Assembly (NCBI GenBank): GCA_903928345.1 | Contig: CAIYQO010000229.1 | Span: forward strand, 1,351 to 65,350 | Direction of reading: 5' to 3' | Origin: an uncultured bacterium | GTDB taxonomy: Bacteria; Armatimonadota; Hebobacteria; CAIYQO01 | DNA length: 64,000 bases | Shown: positions 931 through 48,528 of the stretch, in pieces | Layout: every line of letters starts with the position of its first letter | Position numbering within the stretch: position 1 is the first letter of the stretch | Made by a program: the position numbers and the translations under genes | Notes under the pieces: generated by a model | Databases searched by the model: none | What the model was told of the DNA's origin: nothing | What the model saw: the letters and a program-made list of their open reading frames with translations, nothing else

Positions 931-1397
931 GTCATCGCCTCCGGTTGTTCGGCAAACAACGTCAGTACGAGACCCGAGCGAGCCAGCGAGTATTGCAGTG
1001 ACGACGAAGGACTGGTCGCGCCGAGATCCAGACAGGACACCTTTCGCGGGGTTCCGACATACCGCCCCTCCTGGGCTGTTCCGTGCGGTAATCCCGGTGT
1101 CTAGTTTGCCTGTATTAGTATTCTAAACGGGTCAGTTCGCTCCTGTCAAGCGTGTCGGCGTTCGCGTGTGCGGAAAGATGCCGCGTCACGTCGCCGTTCC
1201 GCACAGTGGGCGGTGTTAAGCACGTTGTAATTCTAACACACGAGTATCATATTGTCCAGGGGGACGGCGCTCTTGGCTGGGGGCGGCCCCGCGTCAGCAC
1301 GCGCATAACCCACCCCGCGCGCCTCCCCGACGCCGGATAACGAAACGACCGCCCCGGTCGCGCGACCGGGGCGGCGCGTGCGTAGCAGTCGGCAGCG

Positions 1398-2561
1398 CTA
1401 CAGGTTCAACACCTGCGAGACGCGGTAGTTGTCGATGTTGAGGGTTTCCGGTCCGCCGGTCACCTGGTAGAAGATCCAGCAGTCCTGCAGGTCCATGTAG
1501 GCGGGCGTCGCCATGCACAGGGTGCCATTCGCTGCTTTGAACTGGTTGCTCTCACCCGTGATTTTGAAGTCCATCATCTTTACCGGCCACACGGTCTGGT
1601 CGATATGGGCATATTTCCCCGTCGCGAGCGTGCCGGTATACGCGGCTTTGCTGGACAGGTTGTTCGGCGCACTTAACCCGTCACTGACATCCATATACTG
1701 CAAATAGGAATCACCCTGCGAAGATGAGGCGGTGCGTTGATACCACGGGCCCCAGGAGCCCACGCTTACCGAAGTGGCGGCCACGACACGCCGCACGTCA
1801 AACTGGGTGATGAATTCCGTGGTGACGGAGGAATTCTGCGCGAAGGCGGCCAGCATCGCGGTCTGCAGGGGGGTCATAGGGCCGCCGTTCTGGTTGTAAT
1901 ACTGCAGGCGCCAGTCAGCCCCCGTCTGCGCGGTGATCTGATAGACCTTGTTGCCGTTATCGTTGACAATGCCGGCCGTCCCCGTACCGCTCTGTTGAGT
2001 CCAGTTGAAGGGAACCACGCCGTCGTCAAAGGTATAAAGGCAGATGGTCTTCAGGTTCGGCTTGTCCAACTCGCCCAGCGCCGGGAAGATGCCCACGTGG
2101 CCGTCGGCGAAGGCGGCGATGATCTTGCCGCCGTGGTTCGAGGTGTTGTAGTCCGCCGTGGTGTAGCCGATGTTCGCCAGCGGCGCCGCGGTCGTCACCG
2201 TGTGCGTGCCGTCAAAGGTGGGCAGCGCAACGGTGGGGTCGGGCAGCTCGCCCAGCGCCGAGCCGCTCCAGGTGTTGTTGAAGCAGTAGGCGTTGCTGAC
2301 CTTCGTGCCCGCGCTGGGGCAGATGAGCACGCCCTTGTCCATGCTGATGCCGCCCCAGGCCTGGTCGGCGGTGGGCAGCATCTCGTTGTGATCCTGCGCG
2401 TACATCAGCAACGCGACGGTGATCTGCTTTTGATTGTTCAGGCACGCCGTCTGCCGCGCCTTCTCACGCGCCTTGGCGAAGACGGGGAAGAGGATGGCGG
2501 CCAGGATCGCTATAATAGCAATGACGACGAGGAGTTCGATCAGCGTAAAGCCTTTGCGCAT
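1398..2561 (-). CDS. Prepilin-type N-terminal cleavage/methylation domain protein with DUF1559 (H-X9-DG) domain.
   Basis: N-terminus [46 protein letters not shown] is a canonical type IV pilin-like leader/hydrophobic helix plus the DUF1559 start. RBS AAGGAGA 6 nt upstream. Sigma70-like promoter TTGACA-17-TACGAT upstream. Confidence 0.85.
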
Positions 2562-2593
2562 GGCATGTCTCCTTCTGAAATGATGGATAGTTT

Positions 2594-2622
2594 ATCGTAT
2601 GACCGCGCGTTCGTTTTGTCAA
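2594..2622 (-). promoter_or_regulatory. Sigma70-type promoter for the prepilin/DUF1559 gene at 2561 (minus strand).
   Basis: On the minus strand: TTGACA, 17 nt, TACGAT. The -10 lies about 30 nt upstream of RBS AAGGAGA. Confidence 0.5.
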
Positions 2623-2748
2623 GGGAGTACGCCGACTTTCTTGCCGTCCTCCGCGTCGCGCCCGACGTGTAAGAGCAGGAATTCGCGGGCACAAACGCGA
2701 AAGGAAGCGTGTCGTTGCCCAAGTGACGTTTTCATCGAGGTTGTGCTC

Positions 2749-4284
2749 ATGACGATCTATGACATGCTGGTGCGCAGTGCGGCGGGCACGCCGGGTGCGC
2801 CGCTGATCGGGTACCGCGAGCAGACGTACAGCTACGCGCAAGTGCAGGCGCTGGTGGACGGGTGCGCGGCGGGGCTGGCGGCGCTGCGCCTGCGCAAGCG
2901 GGCACGCGTGGCGGTGCTGCTCCCCAACTGCCCGCCCTTCATCATCGCCTACTTCGCCATCAACCGCCTGGGCGCCACGGTGGTGCCGCTCAACGTGCTC
3001 TACCGGCCCGACGAGGCGCGCTTCATTCTGGCCGACAGCGAGGCGGAGGCCATCATCACCGCCGAACCCTTCCGTCCACTGGTGGCGGCGCTGCGCCCGC
3101 ACCTGCCCAGACTGCAACACGTGGTGATGGTCACCGACGGCGACGTGGCGGGCGACGAGGTGGACTTCCGCACCCTCTGCCGCCATGCCCCGCACGCGGC
3201 GCCGGCGCAGTCAGAGCGCGAGACGGCGGTGATCCTCTACACCTCGGGCACCACGGGCCGCCCCAAGGGCGCGATGCTCACCAACGCGAACCTGATCGCC
3301 AACGCGCACTCCTGCTCCGGCGTGCTCGACGTCACGCCGGGCGACTGCCTGCTCTCCGCGCTGCCCCTCTTCCATGCCTTTGCCGCCACGGTGACGATGC
3401 TGCTGCCCATCCTCGTCGGCGGGCGCATCCACCTCACCGAGCGCTTCGTGCCCGCGCATACGCTGCAATTGCTGGAGGACGCGGGGGTGACGATCTTTGC
3501 CGGCGTGCCCAGCATGTTCGGCTTGATGCTGCAGATCCCGCGCGACCACCGGCCGTCGCTGGCGGCGCTGCGCACCTGTATCAGCGGCGGCGCCCCGCTG
3601 CCCCCCGACGTATGGACGGCCTTCGAAGCCGCCTTCGACGTGCGCATGGCGGAAGGGTATGGCCTGACGGAAGCCGCGCCGGTGGTGTCGGTGAACCCGC
3701 CGCTGGGGCTGCGCAAGGTGGGCAGCATCGGTCCGGCCATCCCCGACGTGGCCCTGAAGCTGATCGACGCGCGCGGACGCGCCGTGCCCGACGGGGAGAT
3801 CGGCGAGCTGTGCGTACGCGGCCCCAACGTGATGAAGGGCTACCTGAACCGCCGCGCGGAGACGAAGGACGTGCTGCGTCGCGGCTGGCTGCACACCGGC
3901 GACCTGGCGCGCCGCGACGAGGACGGCTACCTGTTCATCGTGGGACGCAAGAAGGAGTTGATAATCGTCGGCGGGCTGAATGTCTACCCCGGCGAGGTGG
4001 AGCGCGTGCTGGTGGAGCACCCCGCCGTGCTGGAAGTCGCCGCCTACGGCGTCTCCGACCCCTCGCGCGGCGAGGCGGTGTGGGCCTCCGTGGTGCTGCG
4101 CCCCGACAGTGCCGCCACCGAGAAGGAACTGCAGGCGCTCTGCCGCGAAAAGCTCGCCAACTACAAAGTGCCGCGTGGCATCGACATCCGCACCGAGTTG
4201 CCGAAAAACGCCCTCGGCAAAGTGATGCGCCACCTGCTCAGCCAGGAAATCGTCGCCCGCCAGAGCCGCCCCACGCCGGTGTGA
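2749..4284 (+). CDS. AMP-dependent synthetase/ligase (long-chain acyl-CoA synthetase, FadD-like).
   Basis: AMP-binding signature LYTSGTTGRPKGAMLTNANL, plus GYGLTEAAPVVSVNP and a TGDLARRDEDGYLFIVGRKKELIIVGGLNVYPGEVE C-terminal domain. I place the start at ATG 2749 (MTIYDMLVRSAAG) rather than at the upstream in-frame extension to 2599. Confidence 0.85.
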   Translation: MTIYDMLVRSAAGTPGAPLIGYREQTYSYAQVQALVDGCAAGLAALRLRKRARVAVLLPNCPPFIIAYFAINRLGATVVPLNVLYRPDEARFILADSEAEAIITAEPFRPLVAALRPHLPRLQHVVMVTDGDVAGDEVDFRTLCRHAPHAAPAQSERETAVILYTSGTTGRPKGAMLTNANLIANAHSCSGVLDVTPGDCLLSALPLFHAFAATVTMLLPILVGGRIHLTERFVPAHTLQLLEDAGVTIFAGVPSMFGLMLQIPRDHRPSLAALRTCISGGAPLPPDVWTAFEAAFDVRMAEGYGLTEAAPVVSVNPPLGLRKVGSIGPAIPDVALKLIDARGRAVPDGEIGELCVRGPNVMKGYLNRRAETKDVLRRGWLHTGDLARRDEDGYLFIVGRKKELIIVGGLNVYPGEVERVLVEHPAVLEVAAYGVSDPSRGEAVWASVVLRPDSAATEKELQALCREKLANYKVPRGIDIRTELPKNALGKVMRHLLSQEIVARQSRPTPV

Positions 4285-4532
4285 CCATTTTGGATTTTGG
4301 ATTGCGAAGCTACTTACGAAACCTTCCCGTCTCCTCCCCCTCCCCCGTCACAGGACGTTACGGGGAGGGGGCACGGGGGGGTGGGGGCGGTCTTTTGAGA
4401 GGTTTTGCAATAATCGCTGCGGATTGCACGGGGGGAGGAGCGCTCGGTGGTCAATTTCCGATCCCTTAAATTTTGATTCAACCCGTCCGGCTACGGCAAC
4501 CCCCCAATCCAAATTCCAAAATCCAAAATCGA
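4285..4532. repeat. Inverted-repeat element with ttttggattttggattg termini enclosing a GC-rich hairpin.
   Basis: ccattttggattttggattg at 4285-4304 versus caatccaaattccaaaatccaaaatcg at 4505-4532 (reverse-complement match). A related half-site gattttggattg is at about 42473-42495. Confidence 0.6.
4330..4372 (+). terminator. GC-rich hairpin downstream of the acyl-CoA synthetase gene.
   Basis: ctcctccccctcccccgt cacaggacgtt acggggagggggcacggggg. Stem ccccctcccccgt / acggggaggggg. Confidence 0.45.
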
Positions 4533-4536
4533 TTCG

Positions 4537-4545
4537 TGCTATACT
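4537..4545 (+). promoter_or_regulatory. Extended -10 promoter element (TGcTATACT) upstream of the prepilin/DUF1559 gene at 4600.
   Basis: gtgcTATACTgtc. No good -35 hexamer, consistent with extended -10 usage. Confidence 0.4.
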
Positions 4546-4599
4546 GTCGCAGGCCTGCTCGCCGGTATGACGCCGGGTTGGCGGGGAGAGAAGGGATCG

Positions 4600-5664
4600 A
4601 TGCTCTCGAAACGCGCGGGATTTACCCTCATTGAGCTGGTGACGGTGGCTGCCATTGCCGTGGTGCTGACGGCGTTGCTGCTGCCGGTGCTGCAACGCGC
4701 GCACGAGAAGGTGTGGGACGCCTCCTGCCTGAGCAACACGCATCAGGTGCAGGTGGCGGCGGTGCTCTGGGCGGAAGACCACGGTGACGTTTTTCCGGGA
4801 GTGGACAAGGTGTGGGGCGCGTTGCACCTCGATCCCGGCACGCTGGTCTGCCCGCTGGCGCGCACACAGGCGAACGGCTACGTCTACAGCAGCCTGCTTC
4901 ACAACAAACCGCACACGGCGATTGCCGACCCGGCGCGCGAATTGCTCGTCTGCGACGGCGCGCACGAAGCCACTACCGTTCCCACGTTCACCTACGACAA
5001 CGTGGCGTACAGCGGGCGCGACCTGCTCTTCCGCCACGCGGGCCCCCGCCTCAACGCCACCTTCGTCGACGGCCATGCGGAGGCTCTCACCGGCACCGGC
5101 GGGTTGCCGCTGGAGTTCCGTGATGCCCCCGCCGCCCAGTGCGAGGGCGTGGATACCGTAACGCACGGCGGCTGGTGGGCACCGCCACCTGCCGGCGCCG
5201 TCTACGGACACAAGGGTTACATACTGTGCAATTGGAACGACACCGATGTGCGCTCGCTGCCGAGTGGCGGCTACGTGGCCTCGATCGACGCGCTGGGCAT
5301 TAGCGGCGGCACCTGGGCGGGCACCCCCTGCGACGATCCGCGCGCGCTCATCAACCCCACCGGCGGCTTGCACGCCGCGTCGTACTGGGCGCCCACGGCG
5401 CCGATCGGCATCACGCTGTCCAACCCGAACGACACCGCCATCCATACGCTGCACCTCTACGTCGTGGATTGGGACAGCCAGGGCCGCGTGCTGACCCTGG
5501 ACGTGCAAAGCACTGCCACCGGCACCTCCGTGCTGGACAAACCGCTGCCGGTGCCCGACAGCACCGGCGGGGTGTGGCTCACCGTGCGTTTCCGCGGCGC
5601 CGTCAGTATCGCCCTCACCGCCGCCAGAGGCACGCCGGTCCTTTCCGCCCTTGCCTTCGACTGA
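4600..5664 (+). CDS. Prepilin-type N-terminal cleavage/methylation domain protein with DUF1559 domain; paralog 2.
   Basis: MLSKRAGFTLIELVTVAAIAVVLTALLLPVLQRAHEKVWDASCLSNTHQ. The C-terminal half (HGGWWAPPPAGAVYGHKGYILCNWNDT...ALAFD) is homologous to the C-terminus of the next gene. RBS GGGGAGAGAAGGGA. Extended -10 promoter TGcTATACT at 4537-4545. Confidence 0.8.
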   Translation: MLSKRAGFTLIELVTVAAIAVVLTALLLPVLQRAHEKVWDASCLSNTHQVQVAAVLWAEDHGDVFPGVDKVWGALHLDPGTLVCPLARTQANGYVYSSLLHNKPHTAIADPARELLVCDGAHEATTVPTFTYDNVAYSGRDLLFRHAGPRLNATFVDGHAEALTGTGGLPLEFRDAPAAQCEGVDTVTHGGWWAPPPAGAVYGHKGYILCNWNDTDVRSLPSGGYVASIDALGISGGTWAGTPCDDPRALINPTGGLHAASYWAPTAPIGITLSNPNDTAIHTLHLYVVDWDSQGRVLTLDVQSTATGTSVLDKPLPVPDSTGGVWLTVRFRGAVSIALTAARGTPVLSALAFD

Positions 5665-5697
5665 CCCCGTGTTTGCACGTAAAACGCGCGAAATCTC

Positions 5698-5726
5698 TTG
5701 ACAATTCACCGGTCGGTTCGTATAGT
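5698..5726 (+). promoter_or_regulatory. Sigma70-type promoter for the prepilin/DUF1559 gene at 5756.
   Basis: TTGACA (5698-5703), 17-nt spacer, TATAGT (5721-5726). RBS GGAGG at 5745-5749. Confidence 0.6.
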
Positions 5727-5755
5727 TTGACTATCTCTTTTTCCGGAGGCAGATT

Positions 5756-6811
5756 ATGCGCAAGCAGGGCTTTACTCTCATCGAACTCCTCGTCGTGATT
5801 GCCATCATAGCGATCCTCGCGGCGATCCTCTTCCCCGTCTTCGCGAAAGCACGGGAAAAGGCGCGGCAGTCGAGCTGCATGAGCAATGAGAAGCAGCTCG
5901 TGACCGCCACGCTGATGTGGGCGCAGGACCACGACGAAATGCTCCCCGACGCCGCGACGTACTGGGGGGCGCTGAACATCGACCGCGGCGTGCTGAAGTG
6001 CCCCACCAAGTCGCGCCTGGCCAACGGCTATCTCTTCAACCAGAACATCGCCGGGATAGCGCTGGGCAAGCTGGTTCCGCCGGAAACGACGCTGGTCCTC
6101 GGCGACGGCGCGCACACCACCTCGACCGCGCAACCGCTGGACAACGTGGCCTACACAACCGCCGAATTCGACACCGCCCGCCACAGCAATAAGATGCTCG
6201 CGGTCTATATGGACGGCCACGTGGAAATGACCACCACCCTCCCCCCGACGATTGTGGACAGCACCGGCATGCCCTTTGCCGTCGGGGCGGCGGCCTTCGG
6301 CACACCGGATACCACCACCAGCGGCGCCTGGTGGACCGCACCGAGCACCTTCGTCCATGGCACGAAGGGGTACGTGCTCTGCTACTGGAACAGCACCACC
6401 GTCACCGCGCTGACGGGCAGTTATGTGGCCTCGGTGACCCCGACGGGCAATGCCACCTACACCTGGGTCGCCACCGGCGCGACCGACCCCCGTGACATCA
6501 TCAATCCGGCGACCGGCGCCCGCTCCGCCGCGTGCTGGTACAATAATGCCTGGTCCTTTACCGTCGCCCTGTCCAATGCCAACGATACCAATGGCCATAC
6601 CATGTGGGTCTACTTCCTCGATTGGGATCCCACGGGCCGGGTCACGAATCTCACCCTGGACTTCGGCAGCGGCACGGTAGCGACGCTGAACGGTTTCAGC
6701 TCCTATTCGGGCGGGGTCTGGCTCCCCATACTCTTCCGCGGCAACAACCTGAAGATGAGCCTGACCGCCACGTCGAGCAACGCGGTGATCTCCGCCGTTG
6801 CCTTCGACTGA
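5756..6811 (+). CDS. Prepilin-type N-terminal cleavage/methylation domain protein with DUF1559 domain; paralog 3.
   Basis: [47 protein letters not shown] is almost identical over the N-terminal 40 aa to the gene at 1398-2561. The C-terminal domain ([27 protein letters not shown]...AVAFD) is shared with the gene at 4600-5664. RBS GGAGG 6 nt upstream. Consensus promoter upstream. Confidence 0.85.
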
Positions 6812-6827: not shown

Positions 6828-6866
6828 AACACGACGCCGGGAGGAAGGCCCTCCCGGCGTCGCGTG
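6828..6866. terminator. Bidirectional terminator hairpin between the convergent prepilin gene (ends 6811) and engB (ends 6886).
   Basis: acgacgccgggagg aagg ccctcccggcgtcgcgt, with a perfect 14-bp stem. Confidence 0.6.
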
Positions 6867-20071: not shown

Positions 20072-20263
20072 CCTCTTTGCTTCGGCCCCGGAGGGGCCGC
20101 CCAGGGTGCAAACCCTGGGTGGTGTAATCATCGAATCTTCCGCGCCGAGGCGGGGCGCCGCAAGGCTTCGCGCCGCCCCTCCAGGGCGAATTGGCATTGC
20201 AACAACCCGTATCCCAGGGCTTGCGCCCTGGGCTAAAATACGTTGCCCCTCCGGGGCAAAGGG
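20072..20263. repeat. Nested-palindrome intergenic element (REP/BIME-like) between the mlaE-like gene and murA.
   Basis: Outer IR ctttgcttcggccccggagggg / cccctccggggcaaaggg. Inner hairpins cccagggtgcaaaccctggg and cccagggcttgcgccctggg. Confidence 0.65.
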
Positions 20264-20272
20264 AAACAGCGC

Positions 20273-21559
20273 ATGAGTGATCGCTTGCATATCCGCGGCG
20301 GACGGCCGCTGACCGGGGAAGTGGTGTTGAACGGCAGCAAGAACGGGGCGCTGCCGATTCTCGCCGCGGCGTTGCTGGTGGAAGAGCCGGTGCAGTTGCA
20401 CAACGTACCGCAGATCAGCGACATCGAGAAGATGTGCGAGCTGTTGCGCGGGCAGGGGGCGGTGGTGACGCGCGACGGCGACACGCTGCGCCTCGATGCC
20501 GCCGCGCTCTCCGGCGCCGCCATCGACCGCGATCTCGCCGCCGCCATGCGCGGCTCCTTCTACCTGCTCGGGCCGTTGCTGGCACGCCGCCGCCGGGCGG
20601 AAATCCCCCTGCCGGGCGGGTGCGCCATCGGCAGCCGCCCCGTGGACTACGTCATCCGCGCGCTGGAAGGCCTCGGCGTGGTCACCGAGGAGCGCACCGA
20701 CGTGGTGGTGTGCACCGCCCCCGACGGCCTGCACGGCGCCACGATCACCCTCGACCCCGTCTACCGCAGCCCGGGCGCCACCTTCAACGTAGCGATGGCT
20801 GCCGCGCTGGCCGAGGGGCGCACAGTGATCGAAAACGCCTCCTCCGACCCCGAGGTGGAGAACTTTTGCCGCTTCCTGCAGGCGGCGGGAGTGGGCATCG
20901 AAGGCGAAGGCACCACGCGGCTGGTGATCGAGGGGCAGAAGCGCCTGCATCGCTGCGCGCACACCATCCTCAGCGACCGCATCGAGGCGGGCACCTTCCT
21001 CATCGCCGCCGCCGCCACGCGCGGCGAAGTGCGCGTGCATCCGCTGCGCCCGGCGTACCTGGACAGCCTGCTCGACAAGCTGGAGGAGATGGGCGTCACG
21101 GTCCTGCGTGAGCGCGACGCCATCACCGTGCGCGGCGACGCCCGCCCCACCGGCGCCACCGTCTACACCATGCCGTATCCCGGCTTCCCCACCGACCTGC
21201 AGCCGCCGATGGTGGTGCTCATGTGCCTGGCGGAGGGGCGCAGCGAGATGCGCGAGACGATCTACGACGGTCGCCTCTCCTTCGTGCACGAACTGCGCCG
21301 CATGGGCGCCCAGGTGAAGCTCGCCAGCGGCCAGCACGCGATGATCGAGGGTGTGGACGCGCTGCGCGGGCGCAGCATGGAGGGCAAGGACATGCGCGCC
21401 GGCGCCGCCCTGGTGGTCGCCGCCCTCGCCGCCGAAGGCGACAGCTACATTGCCGGCCGCCACTACATCGTGCGCGGCTACGAACGCCTGGAAGAGAAAC
21501 TCCGCTCCCTCGGGGCGCAGGTGCTGGACGACGAGGACGAGGGCGGGGACGAACAATAA
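20273..21559 (+). CDS. murA: UDP-N-acetylglucosamine 1-carboxyvinyltransferase.
   Basis: MSDRLHIRGGRPLTGEVVLNGSKNGALPILAAALL is the canonical MurA N-terminus. EPSP synthase-like fold, about 428 aa. Confidence 0.9.
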   Translation: MSDRLHIRGGRPLTGEVVLNGSKNGALPILAAALLVEEPVQLHNVPQISDIEKMCELLRGQGAVVTRDGDTLRLDAAALSGAAIDRDLAAAMRGSFYLLGPLLARRRRAEIPLPGGCAIGSRPVDYVIRALEGLGVVTEERTDVVVCTAPDGLHGATITLDPVYRSPGATFNVAMAAALAEGRTVIENASSDPEVENFCRFLQAAGVGIEGEGTTRLVIEGQKRLHRCAHTILSDRIEAGTFLIAAAATRGEVRVHPLRPAYLDSLLDKLEEMGVTVLRERDAITVRGDARPTGATVYTMPYPGFPTDLQPPMVVLMCLAEGRSEMRETIYDGRLSFVHELRRMGAQVKLASGQHAMIEGVDALRGRSMEGKDMRAGAALVVAALAAEGDSYIAGRHYIVRGYERLEEKLRSLGAQVLDDEDEGGDEQ

Positions 21560-26677: not shown

Positions 26678-26836
26678 GGAGAATGGGGGAAGCGGGGAAT
26701 GGGGGTATGGGGAACGGCCGGGCTCCTGCCCTGTTCCAAACGGTGACTAAGATCACACCTGATCGGTCGTCGCCTATCCATGCCGGCCTTCCCCCACTTC
26801 CCCATTCTCCCATGCCCCATTCCCCACTTCCCCCCG
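26678..26836. repeat. MITE-like element, same family, copy B, in direct orientation relative to copy A; between the ADH start and hypF.
   Basis: ggagaatgggggaagcggggaatggg...ccgggctcctgccctgttccaaacggtgactaagatcacacctgatc...cccccacttccccattctcc. About 85% identity to copy A over the core. Confidence 0.8.
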
Positions 26837-26854
26837 GCGCGCTATAATGCCCGC

Positions 26855-29104
<2,250 letters not shown>

Positions 29105-29253
29105 ATGGTATCGCATATCCCGAATTTGTCGCATTTACCCACCCACTTTTCGCGCCCATTCGTGCTTGTTTCTTATATAGTTTGTAAGATTTATGGAACA
29201 AAAAAAGTTCGCAACTATTTTCCACACCAGCTTAACTATCAACCGTTTTCGTG

Positions 29254-29282
29254 TTGACACTTCCATACGCTTGTGATATTTA
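29254..29282 (+). promoter_or_regulatory. Sigma70-type promoter for the hdrCBA-mvhDGA-protease operon.
   Basis: TTGACA (29254-29259), 17-nt spacer, TATTTA (29277-29282), in an AT-rich 280-bp intergenic region, about 100 nt upstream of hdrC. Confidence 0.5.
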
Positions 29283-29381
29283 TAACTAGTGCCGGTTGTC
29301 ACGAACTCCGACCGCCTGCATCGTCGCACAACCCTATTCGCCCCGGACGAGGCACCCTCTCGCCGCAAAGGAGCGTACCGA

Positions 29382-29975
29382 ATGGACGAGATCACGCGCA
29401 CGGTCAAATACGAGGCCGACACCGACCCGCATTTTGCCGAGGAGATCGCCGGCATCGCGCGCGGGGAGACGCTGCGCGCCTGCATCCAGTGCGGCAACTG
29501 CAGCGGCGCCTGCCCGGTGAGCCCGTACATGGATTACACGCCGCGCCGCATCATCGCCATGACGCGCGCCGGCTTCAAGCGGGAAGCGCTCTCCTCCACC
29601 ACCATCTGGCTCTGCGCCTCCTGCTACAACTGCACGGTGGAGTGCCCCAAGCAGATCCGCATCACCGACGTGATGTACGCGCTGAAGCAGAAGGCCATCA
29701 AGGAGCGGCTCTACCCGAAACGCTTCCCCGTCGCCGTGCTTGCCCGCGAGTTCTCCGCTGCCGTGCGCCAGTTCGGGCGTAACAGCGAGCTGTGGCTCAT
29801 CATCTACCTCTACCTGAAGACTAACCCCTTCGCCATGCTCAAGCAATCGATCCTCGGCCTGCGCCTCTTCCTGCAGGGACGCATGGGCTTGAAGCGCGAG
29901 CGCATCCCCATGGGCACGGGCAAAAAGGGCGATCTGCAGACGATTTGGAACGCACTCGACCGCGCCGACCGGTAA
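29382..29975 (+). CDS. hdrC: Heterodisulfide reductase subunit C-like (4Fe-4S dicluster).
   Basis: Two ferredoxin-type motifs CIQCGNCSGACP and CASCYNCTVECP. Size and context (precedes hdrB/hdrA) fit HdrC. RBS AAGGAG. Sigma70-like promoter about 100 nt upstream. Confidence 0.8.
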   Translation: MDEITRTVKYEADTDPHFAEEIAGIARGETLRACIQCGNCSGACPVSPYMDYTPRRIIAMTRAGFKREALSSTTIWLCASCYNCTVECPKQIRITDVMYALKQKAIKERLYPKRFPVAVLAREFSAAVRQFGRNSELWLIIYLYLKTNPFAMLKQSILGLRLFLQGRMGLKRERIPMGTGKKGDLQTIWNALDRADR

Positions 29976-29988
29976 GGAAGGGACCGCC

Positions 29989-30873
29989 ATGAATCACCTG
30001 TACTACCCCGGTTGCTCGCTGAAAAGCACCGGACGCGCCTACGAGGAATCGCTGCTGGCGGTGTGCGCCACGCTGGGCGTGGGGCTCACCGAGCTGCAGG
30101 ACTGGAACTGCTGCGGCGCCACCAGCTACATGGCGATCGACGAGGTGAAGGCCTTCGCGCTGGCGGCGCGCAACCTGGCCCTTGCCGAGGAGCAGGGGAA
30201 GGTCGGTCCGGGCACCCCGACGGTGGACCTGGTGGCCCCCTGCGCCGCGTGCTACCTGGTGCTTGCCAAGGCGCAGCACTGCCTGGAGGAGAACAAGGAG
30301 GTCGGTGGGAAGATCACCGCCGCGCTGGCCGCCGCGCAACTGCAGTATACGGGCCGCGTGGTGATGCGCCACCCCCTCGATCTGTTCACCAACGCGCTGG
30401 GGCTGGACGCCATCAAGGCGCAGGTGACCAAACCGCTGACCGGCCTGAAGGTGGCCTGCTACTACGGCTGCCAGATCGTGCGCCCCTACGCCACCTTCGA
30501 CGACCAGTACCACCCGATGACGATGGATCACCTGGTGACCGCGCTGGGCGGCACCCCGGTGGACTGGCCGCTGAAGACGCGCTGCTGCGGCGGGTCGCTC
30601 ACCGGCACGGTACAGGAGGTCGGCCTGCGTATGAGCTACCACCTGCTCAAGGAAGCGCGCAAGCGCGGTGCCGACGTGCTGCTTACCGCCTGCCCGCTGT
30701 GCCAGTTCAACCTGGAATGCTACCAGGATCCGATGAAGGCGCTGTTCCCCGATCACGAGCCGCTGCCCGTGCTGTACTTCACCCAACTGATGGGCCTGGC
30801 ACTCGGCCTGGAGCGCGCGCGCCTGGGCCTGCAGCGCCTCTTCGTGCCCTTCCGCCAGCCGGTCGGCGTATAA
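29989..30873 (+). CDS. hdrB: Heterodisulfide reductase subunit B-like (two CCG domains).
   Basis: CCG-domain cysteine patterns (YYPGCSL...NCCGA... and YYGCQ...TRCCGG...CPLCQFN). Confidence 0.85.
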   Translation: MNHLYYPGCSLKSTGRAYEESLLAVCATLGVGLTELQDWNCCGATSYMAIDEVKAFALAARNLALAEEQGKVGPGTPTVDLVAPCAACYLVLAKAQHCLEENKEVGGKITAALAAAQLQYTGRVVMRHPLDLFTNALGLDAIKAQVTKPLTGLKVACYYGCQIVRPYATFDDQYHPMTMDHLVTALGGTPVDWPLKTRCCGGSLTGTVQEVGLRMSYHLLKEARKRGADVLLTACPLCQFNLECYQDPMKALFPDHEPLPVLYFTQLMGLALGLERARLGLQRLFVPFRQPVGV

Positions 30874-30960
30874 CCCGGATAGTTTACGATGTCACGGACT
30901 GCCGGGCTATCAGAGGCATTATTCGAAATGTTCTGAATAATGCGGGATAAAGGAGCCCCC

Positions 30961-32958
30961 ATGAGCGAGACGATGCAATCCGCGGAACCCCGCGTCGGCG
31001 TCTACGTCTGCCACTGCGGCATCAATATCGCCGCCAAGGTGGACATCGCCGCCGTGGTGGAGTTCGCCAAGACGCTACCCTACGTCATCGTGGTGCGCGA
31101 TTACAAGTTCATGTGCTCCGACCCCGGTCAGGAGCTGCTGCAGCAGGACATCAAGGAGCTGGGCCTCAACCGCATCGTGGTGGCCTCCTGTTCTCCGCTG
31201 ATGCACGAAGCGACCTTCCGCCACGCCACCGAAGCCGCCGGGCTGAACCAGTTCTACTTCCAGATGGCGAACATCCGCGAACACGTGAGCTGGGTCACGG
31301 CGGACAAGGCGCTGGCCACACGCAAATCGCAGGCGCTGGTCTCCGCCGCCGTGCGCCGCGTGGTGCTCAACGAGCCGCTGGAGCACCAGAAGGTGCCGGT
31401 GAAGCCGAACGTGCTGGTGGTCGGCGGCGGCATCGCCGGCATCCACGCCGCGCTGACCCTCGCCAACGCCGGCAAGCAGGTCACCCTAGTCGAGCGCGAG
31501 CCGACCATCGGCGGCCACATGGCGAAGTTCGACAAAACCTTCCCCACCCTCGACTGCGCCGCGTGCATCCTCACCCCGAAGATGTCCATGGTGAGGAGCC
31601 ACCCCAATATCACCATGCTCACCTACGCCGAGGTGGTCGGGGTGGAGGGGTACGTCGGCAACTTCACCGTGAAGGTGAAGAAGAAGGCGCGCTACGTGCA
31701 CGAAGAGCTGTGTGTGGGCTGCAACGAGTGCGTCGAGGCGTGCGTGTACAAGGAAGGCCGCTTCACGGACACCTTTAACGAGGGATTGAGCAAACGCAAA
31801 CCCGTCTACATGCCCTTCCCGCAGGCGACGCCCTCCGTGGTGCTCATCGATCCGGAGTCGTGCATCGAGCTAAAGACGGGCAAGTGTAAAAAGCAATGCG
31901 CCACCGCCTGCACGCGCAACGCCATCGACTTTACGATGACGGACGAAATCGTCGCGCTGGAGGTGGGCGCCATCATCATCGCCACCGGCTTCCAGACCTT
32001 CGACGCCACCCGCATCCCGCAGTACGGCTACGGCAAGTTCCCCAACGTCTACACCAGCCTCGAGGTCGAGCGCCTGGTGAACGCCTCCGGCCCGACCGGC
32101 GGCGAGGTGCAACTGCGCGACGGGAGCACGCCGAAGCGCGTGGGGATCATCCACTGCGTAGGCAGCCGCGACGAGAAGACCAACCGCCACTGCTCGCGCG
32201 TCTGCTGCATGTACTCCCTCAAGCTCGCCCACCTCATCCACGAGCGCACCGACGCGGAGGTGTATAACCTCTACATCGACATGCGCACGCCGGGCAAGGG
32301 GTATGAGGAGTTCTACGACAAGCTGCTCAAGGAGGGCGTCAACTTCATCCGCGGGCGCGCCGCCGAAGTCACGGACTGGACGGTGACCCCGGAGGAAGAG
32401 GGCAAGCTGGTCATCCGCGCCGAAGACACCCTCATCGGCGTAGTGCGCCGCATCCCGGTGGACATGGTGGTGCTCTCCGTGGGGCTGGAAGCGCACGCCG
32501 ACGCCGATGAGGTGCGCCGCCTCTTCAACATCTCCTGCAGCAAGGAAGGCTGGTTCCTGGAGCGTCACCCGAAGCTCGCGCCCGTCTCCACCTTCACCGA
32601 CGGCATCTTCATCGCCGGCGCCTGCCAGGGGCCGAAGGACATCCCCGACACGGTGGCGCAGGCCGGCGCGGCGGTAGCCGAGGCGCTGGCGCTGGTGGAC
32701 CGCGGCTTCGTGGAGCTGGAGCCCAACACCGCGTTCATCACCAAGGAACTGTGCTCCGGTTGCCATACCTGCATCGCCATGTGCCCGTTCAGCGCCATCC
32801 GCTACAACAAAGAAGCGGGCGTGGCGGAGATCAACCCCGCGCTGTGCAAAGGCTGCGGCACCTGCGTCGCCGCCTGCCCGTCCGGCGCCGCCCAGCAACA
32901 CCTGTTCACCGACGAGCAGATCTTCCAGGAAATCGAAGGAGTGCTCAATTATGTCTGA
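30961..32958 (+). CDS. hdrA: Heterodisulfide reductase subunit A-like FAD/Fe-S flavoprotein (putative bifurcating subunit).
   Basis: FAD-binding VLVVGGGIAGIHAAL. Several 4Fe-4S motifs (CVGCNECVEAC, CSGCHTCIAMCP, CKGCGTCVAACP). N-terminal VYVCHCGINIA. 665 aa. Confidence 0.9.
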   Translation: MSETMQSAEPRVGVYVCHCGINIAAKVDIAAVVEFAKTLPYVIVVRDYKFMCSDPGQELLQQDIKELGLNRIVVASCSPLMHEATFRHATEAAGLNQFYFQMANIREHVSWVTADKALATRKSQALVSAAVRRVVLNEPLEHQKVPVKPNVLVVGGGIAGIHAALTLANAGKQVTLVEREPTIGGHMAKFDKTFPTLDCAACILTPKMSMVRSHPNITMLTYAEVVGVEGYVGNFTVKVKKKARYVHEELCVGCNECVEACVYKEGRFTDTFNEGLSKRKPVYMPFPQATPSVVLIDPESCIELKTGKCKKQCATACTRNAIDFTMTDEIVALEVGAIIIATGFQTFDATRIPQYGYGKFPNVYTSLEVERLVNASGPTGGEVQLRDGSTPKRVGIIHCVGSRDEKTNRHCSRVCCMYSLKLAHLIHERTDAEVYNLYIDMRTPGKGYEEFYDKLLKEGVNFIRGRAAEVTDWTVTPEEEGKLVIRAEDTLIGVVRRIPVDMVVLSVGLEAHADADEVRRLFNISCSKEGWFLERHPKLAPVSTFTDGIFIAGACQGPKDIPDTVAQAGAAVAEALALVDRGFVELEPNTAFITKELCSGCHTCIAMCPFSAIRYNKEAGVAEINPALCKGCGTCVAACPSGAAQQHLFTDEQIFQEIEGVLNYV

Positions 32959-33415
32959 CACCCCCGCCTTCGAGCCGCGTATCGTGGCCTTCTTTTGCAA
33001 CTGGTGCACCTACACCGCCGCCGACCTGGCGGGCACGGCGCGCCTGACCTACGCGCCCAACGTGCGCGTGGTGCGCATCATGTGCTCGGGCCGCCTCGAC
33101 CCGCAGTTCGTGGTCACGGCCTTGCGCCAGGGCGCCGACGGCGTGCTCATCGGCGGCTGCCACCCCGGCGATTGCCACTACCAGGAAGGCAACTACAAGA
33201 TGCTGCGCCGCTTCCACCTGCTGAAGCGCATGCTCAAGCAGTTCGGCATCGACGATCAGCGCGTGCGCCTGGAGTGGATTTCCGCCTCCGAGGGCGACAA
33301 GGTGCAGCGCGTCATCAACGAGATGGTGGCGCAGGTGCGCGACCTCGGCCCGTTGGCGCTGGTCGGCAAACCAACCCCGCACCCGGACGCAAGCGAGAAG
33401 CACGCCGCCGCGTAG
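32951..33415 (+). CDS. mvhD: Methyl-viologen-reducing hydrogenase delta subunit (MvhD)-like [2Fe-2S] protein.
   Basis: RIVAFFCNWCTYTAADLAGTARL...CSGRLDP...LIGGCHPGDCHYQEGN matches MvhD/FlpD. Start overlaps the hdrA stop (ATGTCTGA). Confidence 0.85.
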   Translation: MSDTPAFEPRIVAFFCNWCTYTAADLAGTARLTYAPNVRVVRIMCSGRLDPQFVVTALRQGADGVLIGGCHPGDCHYQEGNYKMLRRFHLLKRMLKQFGIDDQRVRLEWISASEGDKVQRVINEMVAQVRDLGPLALVGKPTPHPDASEKHAAA

Positions 33416-33430
33416 CGAAGGAGACACCCG

Positions 33431-34396
33431 ATGACAAAACCAAAAGTCGGCTTTTACTGGTGTGCCTCCTGCGGGGGGTGTGAAGAAGCGGTGGTCGATC
33501 TGCACGAGGCGATCCTCGACGTGGTCGCCGCGGTGGACATCGTCTTCTGGCCGTGCGCGATGGATTTTAAGCGCACGGATGTGGAGGCGATGGCCGACGG
33601 CGAGCTGGCGGTCTGCTTCATCAACGGCGCCGTGCGCACCAGCGAGCAGTTCGAGATGGTCGAGCTGTTGCGCCGCAAGGCGGGGGTGGTTATCGCCTTC
33701 GGCGCCTGCGCGCAGAGCGGCGGCATCCCCGGGCTGGCGAACTTCACCTCGAAGGCTGCCATCCTGGCGAACGTGTATGAGGACACGCGCACCACGGTGA
33801 ACCCGCACAAGACTTACCCGCAGGCCACGGTGCAGGTGCCGGAAGGCACGCTGACGCTGCCCGTGCTCGACGAGACGGTACGCGCGCTGGGGCAGGCGAT
33901 CCCGGTGGACTATTACCTGCCCGGCTGCCCGCCGCCCGCGAAACTCATCGCCGACGCGGTGGGGGCCATCCTCGCCGGCACTTTGCCCGCGCCGGGCAGC
34001 GTGCTGGCACCCAACGTGGGTGTTTGCCACGAGTGCACGCGCAAGGAGACGAAGCCGGAGAAGATGCTCGTCACCCAGTTCAAGCGCCCGCATCAGGTGC
34101 TCATCGACCCCGCCCAGTGCCTGCTGGCGCAGGGATTGGTCTGCCTGGGGCCGGATACGCGCAGCGGCTGCGGCGCCGCCTGCCCGGCGGGCAATATGCC
34201 CTGCACCGGCTGCCTGGGCGCGCTGGATCAGGTGCGCGACTTCGGCGCCAAGGCGCTCTCCGGCCTGGCGTCCGTGCTGGACGCCGGGGAGGACGCCGCC
34301 ATTGACGCGGGCCTGGCCGGCGTGCCCGATCCCGCCGGCACCTTTTATCGTTACAGCCTGCCCGCCTCCGAGCTTTTCGCGAAGCTGCCGGAGTAG
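33431..34396 (+). CDS. mvhG: [NiFe]-hydrogenase small subunit (group 3, MvhG-like).
   Basis: N-terminal FYWCASCGGCEEAVVDL proximal-cluster motif, GACAQSGGIPG, and C-terminal cluster cysteines CHECTRKE...CPAGNMPCTGCLG. RBS AAGGAGA. Confidence 0.85.
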   Translation: MTKPKVGFYWCASCGGCEEAVVDLHEAILDVVAAVDIVFWPCAMDFKRTDVEAMADGELAVCFINGAVRTSEQFEMVELLRRKAGVVIAFGACAQSGGIPGLANFTSKAAILANVYEDTRTTVNPHKTYPQATVQVPEGTLTLPVLDETVRALGQAIPVDYYLPGCPPPAKLIADAVGAILAGTLPAPGSVLAPNVGVCHECTRKETKPEKMLVTQFKRPHQVLIDPAQCLLAQGLVCLGPDTRSGCGAACPAGNMPCTGCLGALDQVRDFGAKALSGLASVLDAGEDAAIDAGLAGVPDPAGTFYRYSLPASELFAKLPE

Positions 34397-34408
34397 AGGA
34401 ATTTTTCC

Positions 34409-35875
34409 ATGAGCCAGAAGATCACCATCGATCCGATCACCCGCCTGGAAGGGCACGGCAAGGTCGATATCTTCCTCGATGACGCGGGGAACGTCGAACG
34501 CGCCTACCTGCAGATTCCCGAGTTGCGCGGGTTCGAGAAGTTCGCGGAAGGCCGTCCGGTGGAGGACATGCCGCAGATCACCTCGCGCATCTGCGGCGTC
34601 TGCCCCACCGCGCACCATATGGCCGCGTCCAAGGCCGTCGACGCCGTCTTCCACGTGGAGCCATCGGTGCCCGGGCGCAAAATTCGCGACCTCGTCTACA
34701 GCATCTTCTTCGTGGAAGACCATGCCTTGCACTTCTACTACCTGGGCGGACCGGACTTCATCGTCGGCCCCACGGCCCCCAAGGCGGAGCGCAACATCCT
34801 GGGCGTGCTGGGCAAGGTGGGCCTCGAGATCGGTAAAGAGGTGATCGGCCTGCGCCGGCAACTGCGCGAACTCATCGCGCTGGCGGGCGGCAAGGTGATC
34901 CACCCAGTACTCGGCCTGCCCGGCGGCGTGGCGAAGGCGCTGACGAAGGAGGACCAGGCGAAGTTCATCGCGGCGGCCGACCACGCGGTAGAGTTCGCCG
35001 AGTTCACGCTGAAGATCTTTCACGACATCGTGCTGAAGAACCCCGACTACGTGGCGTGGATCACCAACGACATCAACACCCACGCGACCTATTACATGGG
35101 CCAGGTGGACGCGAAGAACCGGGTGAACTTCTACGACGGGCAGATCCGCGTGGTGGCGCCGGACGGCAAGGAGTTCCTCAAATTCCCCGCCGCCGACTTC
35201 CACCAGCACGTGGCTGAGCAGGTGGAGCCGTGGAGCTACATCAAGTTCTGCTACCTGCGCGCGGTGGGCTGGAAGGGCTTCACCGACGGCGCGGACAGCG
35301 GCGTCTACTGCGTCGCCCCGCTGGCGCGCCTCAACGCCGCCGACGGCATGGCCACCCCGAAGGCGCAGGCCGCCTACGAGGAGATGTACGCCCTACTCGG
35401 CGGCAAGCCGGTGCACCACACGCTGGCGAACCACTGGGCGCGCCTGATCGAACTGCTCTACGCCGCCGAACGCATGCAGGAGCTGGCCAACGACCCGGAC
35501 ATTATCGACCCCAACGTGCGCACGCTGCCCACTGCCACGCCGACGGAAGGCGTGGGCATCGTGGAGGCCCCGCGCGGCACGCTGGTGCACTACTACGCCA
35601 CCGACGCCGACGGACTGGTGACGCGGGCCAACCTCATCGTCGCCACGCAGAACAATGCCGCGCGCATCGCCATGTCGGTGGATAAGACGGCGCGCGGGGT
35701 GATCAAAAACGGCAAGGTGGACGACGGCATCCTGAACATGGTGGAGATGGCCTTCCGCGCCTACGACCCGTGTCACGGCTGTGCCACCCACGCGCTGCCC
35801 GGGCAGATGCCGCTGCGGCTGGCTATCTACAACGCCGCGGGCGTACAAATCGACGAGATCCGACGGGACGGGTGA
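34409..35875 (+). CDS. mvhA: [NiFe]-hydrogenase large subunit (group 3c, MvhA-like).
   Basis: N-terminal Ni-Fe ligand motif RICGVCPTAHH and C-terminal DPCHGCATHA motif, with a short extension after the His. 488 aa. Confidence 0.9.
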   Translation: MSQKITIDPITRLEGHGKVDIFLDDAGNVERAYLQIPELRGFEKFAEGRPVEDMPQITSRICGVCPTAHHMAASKAVDAVFHVEPSVPGRKIRDLVYSIFFVEDHALHFYYLGGPDFIVGPTAPKAERNILGVLGKVGLEIGKEVIGLRRQLRELIALAGGKVIHPVLGLPGGVAKALTKEDQAKFIAAADHAVEFAEFTLKIFHDIVLKNPDYVAWITNDINTHATYYMGQVDAKNRVNFYDGQIRVVAPDGKEFLKFPAADFHQHVAEQVEPWSYIKFCYLRAVGWKGFTDGADSGVYCVAPLARLNAADGMATPKAQAAYEEMYALLGGKPVHHTLANHWARLIELLYAAERMQELANDPDIIDPNVRTLPTATPTEGVGIVEAPRGTLVHYYATDADGLVTRANLIVATQNNAARIAMSVDKTARGVIKNGKVDDGILNMVEMAFRAYDPCHGCATHALPGQMPLRLAIYNAAGVQIDEIRRDG

Positions 35876-36336
35876 TGCGTACTCTCGTGCTGGGCCTGGG
35901 TAACGACCTGATCGCCGACGACGGCCTCGGCCTGCTCGCCGCGCGCGAGTTGGCGGTGACGCACGGGCACCTGGCCGACGTGGTGGAGACCGGGCTGGCG
36001 GGCCTCGCGCTGCTCGACCTGTTTCTCGATTACGACCGCGCGCTGGTCATCGATGCCATCCAGACGGGCACGCATCCGCCGGGGACGATCCTCGCCATTC
36101 GCGGCGACGAACTCTCCGCGGTGGTCGCCCCCTCGCCGCACTACGCGGGGCTGCCGGAGCTGTTCGCGCTGGCGCAGGCGATGGGCCTCGCCTTCCCCCG
36201 CGACGTGCGCATCCTCGCCATGGAAGTCGAGGACGCCGCCACCATCGGCGCCGGCCTCACCCCCGCGGTGGCCGCCGCCCTGCCGACGCTGGTCGCGCGG
36301 GCGGGGGCGATGCTCGAAAACTGGCCGGGGGAGTGA
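35875..36336 (+). CDS. Hydrogenase maturation endopeptidase (HycI/HoxW/HyaD family).
   Basis: MRTLVLGLGNDLIADDGLGL...GLALLDLF...LVIDAI is typical of hydrogenase C-terminal processing proteases. ATG overlaps the mvhA stop (ATGA). Confidence 0.8.
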   Translation: MRTLVLGLGNDLIADDGLGLLAARELAVTHGHLADVVETGLAGLALLDLFLDYDRALVIDAIQTGTHPPGTILAIRGDELSAVVAPSPHYAGLPELFALAQAMGLAFPRDVRILAMEVEDAATIGAGLTPAVAAALPTLVARAGAMLENWPGE

Positions 36337-48200: not shown

Positions 48201-48528
48201 CGTAGACCAGATTCAGCGGCCCGTGCACCAGCCCGTGCACGCGGTAGGCCCCCGCGCTCACCAGCTTACCCTGCACCTCGTACGTCCACGTCGACGCGCC
48301 GCGCACGACGCCGCTCTCGTCCAGCCCGTCCCAGTAGACGGTATGCGCGCCCGCCGCGAAATACGTCTCGCCCAGCAGGTTGCGCACCCGATGTCCCGCC
48401 GCGTCGTCGATGACCAGCGTGACATACCCCGGCGTCGCCAGCGTGAAGCTGACCGGAATCGGCGGATGCCCCTCCGCCCACACCGCACCGCACAACACCG
48501 CCAACAGGAACAGGGTCAGCAACCGCAT
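45247..48528 (-). CDS. Large secreted protein (1093 aa) with signal peptide, NHL/SMP30-like beta-propeller repeats and a C-terminal CBM9/DOMON-like domain.
   Basis: Signal peptide MRLLTLFLLAVLCGAVWA. Propeller-like repeats (NLYVGDWATSNQVKVF, KLWVAESS). C-terminal DGVLTDWKGAAWATVD...RISGDRLYAAF resembles CBM9/DOMON-type modules. The domain assignment is by pattern only. Confidence 0.7.
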   Translation of the reverse strand: MRLLTLFLLAVLCGAVWAEGHPPIPVSFTLATPGYVTLVIDDAAGHRVRNLLGETYFAAGAHTVYWDGLDESGVVRGASTWTYEVQGKLVSAGAYRVHGLVHGPLNLVYELTVNNPGTPPWETEKGDGAWLADHSPQTSVLALPKSPYGDTPQILMAAPVAEAGFSLAWLDLTGKKLYGSKASGWQGGHALAVDTGTTPRAETYAYTLFYDQSKVQLLGLMNDGKCVTLATYPTPTPYNRADTYRLSVAVYNGVAVASLPPEGKLLFIDVTGAKGKILGTAELPDPAGVLVDAAGTLYAVTGKEIHSFTVDWKTGTLGGAKTLVTGLLDPHKLARDAQGNLYVGDWATSNQVKVFSPTGAFLRAIGDAGPLQVGVYNPRLMTQPNGLTIAADGKLWVAESSYLPKRCSVWSLDGKLRNSFIGPTPYGGGGILDPVDKSRFYFAPASGSLEFHVDWEQGTSDLAAVLFRPDTGRLQILNKDGVNQTPHYAVYANGRRYMTNAYNENDGPSTAGIWKIDQGAARLVAAVGIIRSWSVLDDAVVPSGYMKAHLPDGVVENDITIKDPKDNTVKKIPLFNAPGPDGKRVRVNLMFAWSDANGDEQVQPEEVTFAVTGHPFPSWTAGQGLSVVSNFGDLLTPTGFTPAGVPLYDAGKVTHLLKTPVTIGEIPTRQAVLGKDDWFVLTGGPIEGFHHGEKIWYYHSQWASGHSKGLSPKPQYPGQLLNTMALLGPAVAPRGTDTEVWGISGDYGDLFLLTTDGLFVSTLFQDTRVAASHYWPTPAKRGMLLNDCTLLAECYFPTMAQTADGNIYLQAGKNRSSLVRVDGLDTIRRLPPTELTVTPALLAAAQAYFLAQEAARPRTPEEDTLTVPLTTDAPVVDGVLTDWKGAAWATVDAQTKASVRISGDRLYAAFRTTYPLTLDNRPDSAQTIFKGGDALDLYIGTNPAADAKRQTPVPGDIRLTVALVKGKPLAVLFRAVDPTSNAPVKYDSPVGTTTIDRVEEISAQVELAGTQPAARSNAKLYTWELSVPLAALGLAPQAGQTLRADIGILRGNPGLTGERIYWHNKAAGQTADLPTEARLTPGMWGQWKLVAGR

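Follow-up and report, generated by a model that had tools for sequence, protein, structure and literature searches.

Prepilin-like genes with separable C-terminal modules in an uncultured member of the Armatimonadota: probable modular pilins, two of which share a domain of predicted carbohydrate-binding-module-like fold

Background

In modular pilins a pilin part is combined with an additional functional module. Raynaud et al. found more than 1,200 such proteins with 264 architectures, among which lectin and carbohydrate-binding modules were prominent, and predicted that further modular pilins exist whose modules have no database signature (PMC8179133). Examples are PilB and PilC of Streptococcus sanguinis, which carry a vWA module and a concanavalin-A-like lectin module, respectively, and CofB of enterotoxigenic Escherichia coli (ETEC) with its C-terminal beta-sandwich (PMC8179133, PMC9934059). 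Here we describe three genes (g1, g2 and g3) whose products appear to be built according to the same plan. They lie in a 64,000-nucleotide stretch of DNA from an uncultured bacterium of the Armatimonadota (contig CAIYQO010000229.1 of assembly GCA_903928345.1, positions 1,351 to 65,350); this whole stretch is called the window below, and coordinates refer to it.

The pilin parts of the three proteins resemble the DUF1559 (PF07596) and H-X9-DG (TIGR04294) families, which occur in Planctomycetes, Verrucomicrobia, Lentisphaerae and Armatimonadetes. There are 68 DUF1559 paralogs in Planctopirus limnophila, two of them essential (PMC10632474), and 79 PulG-like genes in Fimbriimonas ginsengisoli (PMC4072686). 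These papers support the remark in a first-pass annotation of the window, made from the sequence alone, that the family is very large and functionally uncharacterised. Two other systems are of interest for comparison: the bindosome of Sulfolobus solfataricus, whose sugar-binding proteins carry class III signal peptides (PMC3047682), and the dextran-binding or polysaccharide-binding fibres observed on planctomycetes (PMC5394234).

We propose, with a probability that we put at roughly 0.6, that g1, g2 and g3 encode modular type IV pilins displaying effector modules, and that the module common to g2 and g3 is most likely ligand-binding, possibly glycan-binding.

Results

The pilin part of g1, g2 and g3

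All three open reading frames (ORFs) were found where the first-pass annotation had placed them: g1 at 1398..2561 on the minus strand (387 amino acids), g2 at 4600..5664 on the plus strand (354 amino acids) and g3 at 5756..6811, also on the plus strand (351 amino acids). Their G+C content at third codon positions (0.84-0.86) is of the coding type in a window of 66% G+C, and the NCBI/ENA gene calls, from a contig of 84.6 kb, give products identical to all three, that of g1 being P0002. An exact copy of g3 is carried by the ENA samples ERZ18625109 and ERZ27313079. The ATG start of g2 at 4600 is backed both by the database gene call and by the ortholog P0027. No further ORF with a prepilin motif was detected by a six-frame motif scan of the 64 kb.

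Each protein begins with a short basic leader ending in Gly (MRKG in g1, MLSKRAG in g2 and MRKQG in g3), which is followed by Phe+1. With the prepilin hidden Markov models (HMMs) PF07963 and TIGR02532, g1 scored 33.9 and 35.8 bits and g3 36.6 and 36.0 bits, in all cases above the curated cut-offs, whereas g2 was above the cut-off with TIGR02532 (17.5 against 16.3 bits) and 1.2 bits below it with PF07963 (20.0 against 21.2 bits). Solved pilins could be aligned across the alpha-1 helix, and the alignment between g1 and Thermus PilA (6xxd) reached residue 103. In an alignment of ten sequences (g1-g3 and seven homologs) Gly-1, Glu+5 and Pro+22 were invariant, and so were the Cys41/Cys82 pair and the RH-X9-DGH motif. 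Scores and leader features thus bear out the claim that the proteins have prepilin-type N-termini. The claim that they share one 23-residue pilin segment is right as far as the leader is concerned, which all three possess, but the helix of g2, GFTLIELVTVAAIAVVLTALLLP, departs from the quoted consensus at 9 of the 23 positions.

The assignment to DUF1559 proved to be overstated. With PF07596 (DUF1559, SBP_bac_10) g1 scored 37.4 bits against a gathering threshold of 23.3, g3 fell 0.6 bits short (22.7) and g2 gave no match, so that of the two models named by the first-pass annotation TIGR02532 passed for all three proteins and PF07596 for g1 alone. In every case only positions 2-35 of the 268-position profile were aligned. 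What the proteins have in common with these families is the TIGR02532 N-terminus, a short post-helix motif, A(R/K)EKARQxxCxxNxKQ, and the H-X9-DGH motif; the body of about 100 residues between the motifs could not be aligned to the profile. The H-X9-DG motif is visible by eye in g1 and g3, and in g2 with a spacing of X10, at residues 143-159, but TIGR04294 did not reach its cut-off of 19 bits (the best value was 14.2, for g3). The motif closes the pilin part, at about residue 155, and does not coincide with the protein's C-terminus; unlike in the DUF1559 and H-X9-DG families, an extra module of 170-230 amino acids comes after it.

These data bear on the possibility that the three proteins are ordinary DUF1559 paralogs, whose C-terminal halves are simply the variable body of the family. 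Their total length of 351-387 amino acids is typical of the family, the PF07596 score of g1 is above threshold, and IMG calls the ortholog of g2 an 'H-X9-DG protein'. However, an alignment limited to 34 of the 268 profile positions, and a fold-closing H-X9-DG motif at residues 143-155 with some 200 more residues behind it, make this explanation very unlikely, and the properties of the C-terminal part described below make it still harder to maintain.

Two different C-terminal modules

Over their full length, the C-terminal part of about 170 amino acids included, the g2 and g3 proteins share 38% identity (E 3e-70), and the proposed relationship between the C-termini of the tandem pair is therefore real and highly significant. 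The C-terminal motif that had been quoted for the pair is present, but its wording was slightly wrong: it should read [HY]G[TH]KGY, not HG[HT]KGY. In the comparison of g1 with g3, the near-identity of the first 40 residues was confirmed and the similarity extended on to residue 157, that is, over the whole pilin part (59% identity, E 3e-51). As had been claimed, g1 lacks the C-terminal domain of g2 and g3; it has a different one in its place, which showed no similarity to theirs either in pairwise alignment or in a comparison of the two domains by hhalign. We refer to the C-terminus of g2 and g3 as module A and to that of g1 as module B. Module A corresponds to approximately residues 178-354 of g2 (5131..5661, plus strand) and 178-351 of g3 (6287..6808, plus strand). 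In g1 the pilin part (residues 1-157; 2091..2561, minus strand) is made up of a class III signal peptide, the alpha-1 helix and a compact head closing with H-X9-DG, and module B (approximately residues 165-387; 1401..2069, minus strand) is a C-terminal domain of about 225 amino acids.

Module B was found in two proteins only, g1 and its single known homolog P0003 (51% identical in the module), the latter from JGI and ENA lake metagenomes. A profile search revealed no further relatives even at E <= 10, there was no Pfam match at E <= 10, and no relative was present among the fetched loci or the module A proteins. Judged from its sequence, module B differs from module A and is very rare. Its status as a separate domain is defined at the level of sequence, in two proteins with a pilin context each.

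Module A outside pilins

A word-index search with module A returned a single relative and missed g3 although g3 was present in the collection; the family became visible only with an exhaustive HMM search. With a three-sequence profile, 2,942 cluster representatives (50% clustering) were detected at E <= 1e-3, of which 352 also passed E <= 1e-30. Among the best 150 hits, 141 were non-pilin proteins and eight were prepilin fusions of about 350 amino acids like g2 and g3. The non-pilin proteins in this set were 500-3,800 amino acids long and contained 2-12 tandem copies of module A, mostly 150-200 amino acids apart, the array often being located at the end of the protein; two of these giants were from the cultured planctomycetes Aquisphaera giovannonii and A. 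insulae. Module A is thus a free-standing domain, independent of pilins. Its occurrence by itself in thousands of non-pilin proteins speaks against its being just the variable body of a DUF1559 paralog. Modular pilins are recognised by a pilin part, a linker and a module that is also found outside pilins: for g2 and g3 the model described below shows two domains joined by a linker of low confidence, and 141 of the 150 best hits carry module A with no pilin part.

In a sample of 22 proteins, the partner domains identified with confidence by Pfam were Peptidase_S8 (three proteins), NPCBM (two proteins), Laminin_G_3 and CHB_HEX_C_1, and in addition DUF4082, SBBP repeats, dockerin, fn3 and Ig-like domains. 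By their sequence signatures these form a repertoire typical of secreted surface proteins. A protein of this kind is also encoded close to the ortholog of g1: approximately 4.5 kb downstream of P0003 (locus L001, 15628-19278, minus strand) there is a gene for a FlgD_ig protein of 1206 amino acids with module A (E 4.8e-20), which shows that the organism uses module A both in pilin and in non-pilin proteins.

The A. giovannonii protein (P0004, WP_148596404.1, 2548 amino acids, 12 copies of module A) is named 'TAP-like protein' in the databases. It has a Pfam match to Abhydrolase_4 (E 1.6e-22) in which no single stretch passes on its own; every copy of module A contributes a weak match through its C-terminal motif, and these add up to the score. 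The 'TAP-like' naming of module A giants is probably a systematic mis-annotation of an unmodelled domain. The only match of the word-index search, P0001, turned out to be the 3' part of a frameshift-split gene on a low-coverage contig (L005, 187-1288). In contig CAZNLA010000395 of a metagenome-assembled genome (L006, 1880-2983) the gene is intact and codes for a protein of 367 amino acids with a prepilin leader.

Predicted fold of module A

The modules of g2 and g3 had no Pfam match at E <= 10, and 30 diverse copies of module A gave nothing consistent. An AlphaFold model of g3, computed from the ten-sequence alignment, was of moderate confidence (mean predicted local distance difference test score, pLDDT, 78.8). 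It shows a helix (residues 8-58), a small alpha/beta head, a segment of low confidence around residues 160-180, and, from 178 to 351, a beta-sandwich whose block-mean pLDDT values lie at 75-93. A separate beta-sandwich behind a low-confidence linker is again at variance with the view that the C-terminal half is part of a DUF1559 body. When the model was compared with the PDB using Foldseek, the matches were almost exclusively to carbohydrate-binding modules (CBMs) of families CBM35, CBM36, CBM6, CBM32 and CBM61 and to related jelly-rolls, with E-values of 1e-4 to 1e-3 and TM-scores of 0.45-0.52 relative to isolated CBM chains (2vzr, 1w0n, 2w1w). They included the CBM35 domains of Pc1,3Gal43A and of Ape1 as well as Cry protoxin domains. 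In the model, module A is a beta-jelly-roll similar to CBM6, CBM35 and CBM36, the resemblance being one of fold alone. The predicted fold and the partner domains suggest that the role of module A is most likely ligand binding, probably glycan binding or adhesion.

Orthologs and the origin of the architecture

Every one of the three genes has an ortholog of the same architecture: P0003 for g1 (62% identity for the head after residue 40 and 51% for the module), P0027 for g2 (60% and 65%) and P0042 for g3 (60% and 57%). In the window the gene order is acyl-CoA synthetase, g2, g3, EngB, and synteny is kept for g2 and g3: P0042 is followed by EngB, as is g3, and P0027 comes after an acyl-CoA synthetase gene, as does g2, and is itself followed by a g3-like start (L013). 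About 19 codons into this g3-like gene the L013 sequence switches suddenly to AT-rich sequence unlike g3 (3020-3139); this switch at the contig end is probably an assembly chimera.

The first-pass annotation had suggested that the shared C-terminal module may be a recombining cassette. Such a cassette would move between loci and generate diversity on a short timescale in the manner of the pilE/pilS variation system. There is indeed a mosaic pattern, in that the head of g3 beyond residue 40 has 47% identity to g1 but only 34% to g2, whereas its module is the one found in g2. The orthologs, with 51-65% identity in head and module, their conserved architecture and, for g2 and g3, their conserved synteny, speak against this suggestion. 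So does the low overall identity of g2 and g3, and no silent or promoterless copies of module A were found within the window. Nor were there long identical DNA tracts. In the DNA alignment of g1 and g3 the near-identical first 40 codons contained many synonymous differences scattered throughout, for which reason gene conversion between the two genes was rejected. The N-terminal 33 residues are identical across homologs from genomes of 41-68% G+C, which indicates that the helix is constrained at the protein level rather than homogenised by gene conversion. Taken together, we consider ongoing cassette exchange most improbable.

The sequences argue instead for older events. The g2 and g3 genes are the products of an old tandem duplication, with a similar degree of divergence in the two halves (34% identity for the head after residue 40, 42% for module A). 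The closer pilin parts and different modules of the g1 and g3 lineages mean an ancient replacement: at the level of domain architecture, one module took the place of another in an ancestor, before these lineages split.

Expression signals

A scan of 8 kb found six sigma-70-like sites, compared to 1.0 +/- 1.0 in shuffled sequences. The g3 gene is preceded by TTGACA-17-TATAGT (5698..5726, plus strand) and the ribosome-binding site (RBS) GGAGG (5745-5749), and g1 by TTGACA-17-TACGAT (2594..2622, minus strand) and AAGGAG (2574-2569). The g2 promoter has an extended -10 element, TGcTATACT (4537..4545, plus strand), and no recognisable -35 element. The scan agrees with the claim that each gene has its own sigma-70-like promoter; the accompanying claim of a strong RBS on each gene holds for g1 and g3 but not for g2, whose RBS is a weaker purine run, GAGAGAAGGGA. 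Probable terminators, in the form of G+C-rich hairpins, were found 23 nucleotides past the stop codon of g1 (1348..1375, minus strand; -38.6 kcal/mol, z -2.4) and 20 nucleotides past that of g3 (6832..6862, plus strand; 13 bp, -42.5 kcal/mol, z -5.4). No terminator hairpin was found in the spacer between g2 and g3 (z -0.4), and g3 may therefore also be read through from g2.

Similar promoters are present at the orthologs and at homologs from unrelated backgrounds: TTGACG-17-TAAAAT at the locus of the g1 ortholog (L001), TTGACA-17-TATAAT, TTGACA-17-TAAAAT and TTGACA-17-CAGAAT at three homologs (L006, L007 and L010, respectively), and, in L013, TGgTATACT at the equivalent place before the g2 ortholog and TTGACA-17-TATATT before the g3-like gene. 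The orthologs and homologs also carry Shine-Dalgarno sites. That the promoter sequences are conserved in genomes ranging from 41 to 68% G+C is the strongest evidence at hand for functional promoters. Judging by these signals, g1, g2 and g3 are autonomous units, each with its own sigma-70-type promoter and RBS, and are probably strongly expressed.

Strong expression is the point from which the main rival explanation starts. According to this explanation the proteins are not filament subunits, and the class III signal peptide is an export and anchoring device only; after cleavage they would be located in the cytoplasmic membrane or in an envelope array, as abundant substrate-capturing binders analogous to the Sulfolobus bindosome. 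Near-consensus promoters and strong RBSs would be expected of abundant proteins more than of rare tip pilins, and since the characterised modular pilins are minor, tip-located proteins, the promoters weigh against interpreting g1-g3 as modular pilins. The rival explanation is also favoured by the scattered position of the genes, which are surrounded by housekeeping genes and stand apart from any pilus operon, and there is a precedent for class III signal peptides on binding proteins (PMC3047682), which have a binding domain behind a prepilin-type signal peptide and are abundant at the surface without being classical pilus subunits, as g1-g3 would be on this explanation. On the other hand, the precedent is archaeal and concerns solute-binding proteins of ATP-binding cassette (ABC) transporters with a dedicated Bas assembly system; neither was seen here, and none of the three genes adjoins an ABC transporter gene. 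Moreover, Glu+5 and Pro+22, which are invariant in the family, are both characteristic of subunits packed within type 4 filaments, and the head retains the size and organisation of a pilin. We therefore regard abundant membrane-anchored binders as a serious possibility, though an unlikely one.

Gene neighbourhood and other elements of the window

The neighbours of g1-g3 are housekeeping genes: a sugar-transferase-like gene, the genes for acyl-CoA synthetase, EngB, an Rrf2 regulator, MutS2 and a glycoside hydrolase family 2 (GH2) beta-mannosidase, and a hydrogenase-related cluster (26747-36336), which encodes HypF, heterodisulfide-reductase-like Fe-S/CCG proteins, an FAD/Fe-S oxidoreductase, the small and large subunits of a NiFe hydrogenase and the maturation protease HycI.

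Between the stop codon of the acyl-CoA synthetase gene and the g2 promoter (4285-4535) lies an inverted repeat of tandem heptamers with the arms ATTTTGGATTTTGGATTG (4287-4304) and CAATCCAAATTCCAAAATCCAAAAT (4505-4529), which enclose a G/C-rich hairpin (-107 kcal/mol and z -3.9 for the whole element). The orthologous spacer in L013 is just 105 nucleotides long and lacks the element. At least 120 metagenome contigs, with G+C contents of 19-73%, contained the exact 18-mer of the arm, mostly as part of longer ATTTTGG/ATTTTAG arrays; an inverted partner within 400 nucleotides was found downstream of 37 of 88 copies and upstream of two. A role as a regulatory site of pilin genes was rejected, the sequence being widespread in metagenomes and never adjoining prepilin genes; it appears to be a heptamer-repeat hairpin element of wide occurrence.

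An Acido-Lenti-1 RNA motif (Rfam RF01687) was detected at 20213-20258 on the plus strand (47.3 bits, gathering threshold 37); it overlaps the 5' end of a frame (20237-21559) that holds a gene of the EPSP_synthase family (MurA/AroA-like). A large protein of 1135 amino acids with FlgD_ig and NHL-repeat matches, which is likely to be a surface protein, is encoded at 45247-48654 on the minus strand; modules A and B are both absent from it. An island of low G+C content (50400-51700; 44-50% compared with about 66% in the surroundings) contains an ORF for 368 amino acids (50558-51664, plus strand) with a signal-peptide-like N-terminus and a repetitive, beta-propeller-like sequence. The island may have been acquired horizontally.

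Discussion

The architecture of the three proteins can be described as a short, basic leader with a terminal Gly, a hydrophobic alpha-1 helix that starts at Phe+1 and has Glu+5 and Pro+22, a compact, predicted alpha/beta head of about 100 residues with a DUF1559/H-X9-DG flavour, a Thr/Pro/Gly-rich linker, and a C-terminal module of 170-230 amino acids that would fold independently. Processing, that is cleavage after Gly-1 and methylation of Phe+1, would fall to a prepilin peptidase encoded elsewhere. Through its pilin part the protein would then become integrated into a type 4 filament or pseudopilus, or be kept in the inner membrane beside one, and the C-terminal module would thereby be displayed as the effector. 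In the case of module A this would be a domain that also serves, in tandem arrays, in thousands of large secreted or surface proteins.

Like the known modular pilins, these proteins have an N-terminal pilin module, a short linker and an independently folding effector module which is also found outside pilins, and beta-sandwiches of the carbohydrate-binding type are among the commonest grafts. This likeness is drawn from sequence and predicted structure. They differ from the known modular pilins in three respects. Their pilin part is of the DUF1559/H-X9-DG type; their modules have no database signature, so that a census based on InterPro would miss them; and they are encoded by solitary genes with near-consensus promoters, not by minor-pilin genes within a pilus operon. 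The comparison of module A with CBM6, CBM35, CBM36 and CBM32, which have the galactose-binding-domain-like fold, gives a similarly divided picture. Module A is like them in predicted fold and in size, and in serving large secreted proteins as an accessory domain, frequently in multiple copies. It is unlike them in that it matches neither the Pfam CBM models nor PDB chains in sequence, and is combined in the sampled carriers with proteases, lectin-like and Ig-like domains instead of catalytic domains of glycoside hydrolases.

Besides the strength of the promoters, several observations weigh against the interpretation of g1-g3 as modular pilins with binding modules. Neither the 64-kb window nor the homolog loci that were fetched contained a gene for a prepilin peptidase, assembly ATPase, platform protein or secretin, and no type II secretion machinery was found in the window; filament assembly of the three proteins is thus a proposal. 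The fold match of module A to CBMs is a weak one (TM about 0.5, sequence identity 7-16%), and a 30-sequence profile of the module found no match among the PDB sequences. Since no glycoside hydrolase catalytic domain was present among the sampled partners, glycan binding by module A remains a guess. For module B, structure prediction from a two-sequence alignment gave no usable model (pLDDT 36.5).

The combination of a pilin with an additional module is a design that has already been documented, and the large, unannotated module A family is a useful by-product of this work. It defines a domain family of about 170 amino acids with approximately 3,000 representatives at 50% clustering, and module A, as a small soluble domain, can be expressed and screened for ligands.

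Many scattered monocistronic paralogs are a feature that g1-g3 share with the DUF1559 and H-X9-DG families (PMC10632474, PMC4072686). A link between the three genes and these swarms of DUF1559 and PulG-like paralogs is speculative, and so is a link to the polysaccharide-binding fibres of planctomycetes (PMC5394234). It is a doubtful idea that the DUF1559-type prepilin swarms of Planctomycetes- and Armatimonadetes-like bacteria are a bacterial counterpart of the bindosome, or filaments that fish for polysaccharides, in which each strongly expressed paralog carries a different ligand-binding surface. If so, g1-g3 would be the explicit cases, in which the binding part is a separable, grafted module, and module A would be a new family of carbohydrate-binding modules shared with giant surface proteins. 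This would provide the first functional handle on DUF1559 and would tie in with the dextran-binding fibres of planctomycetes (PMC5394234). In several environmental phyla the DUF1559-type prepilin genes rank with the largest paralog families that are still unexplained, and grafts of a CBM-like domain such as those described here can be seen as natural experiments, which suggest that the purpose of the family may be to present binding surfaces.

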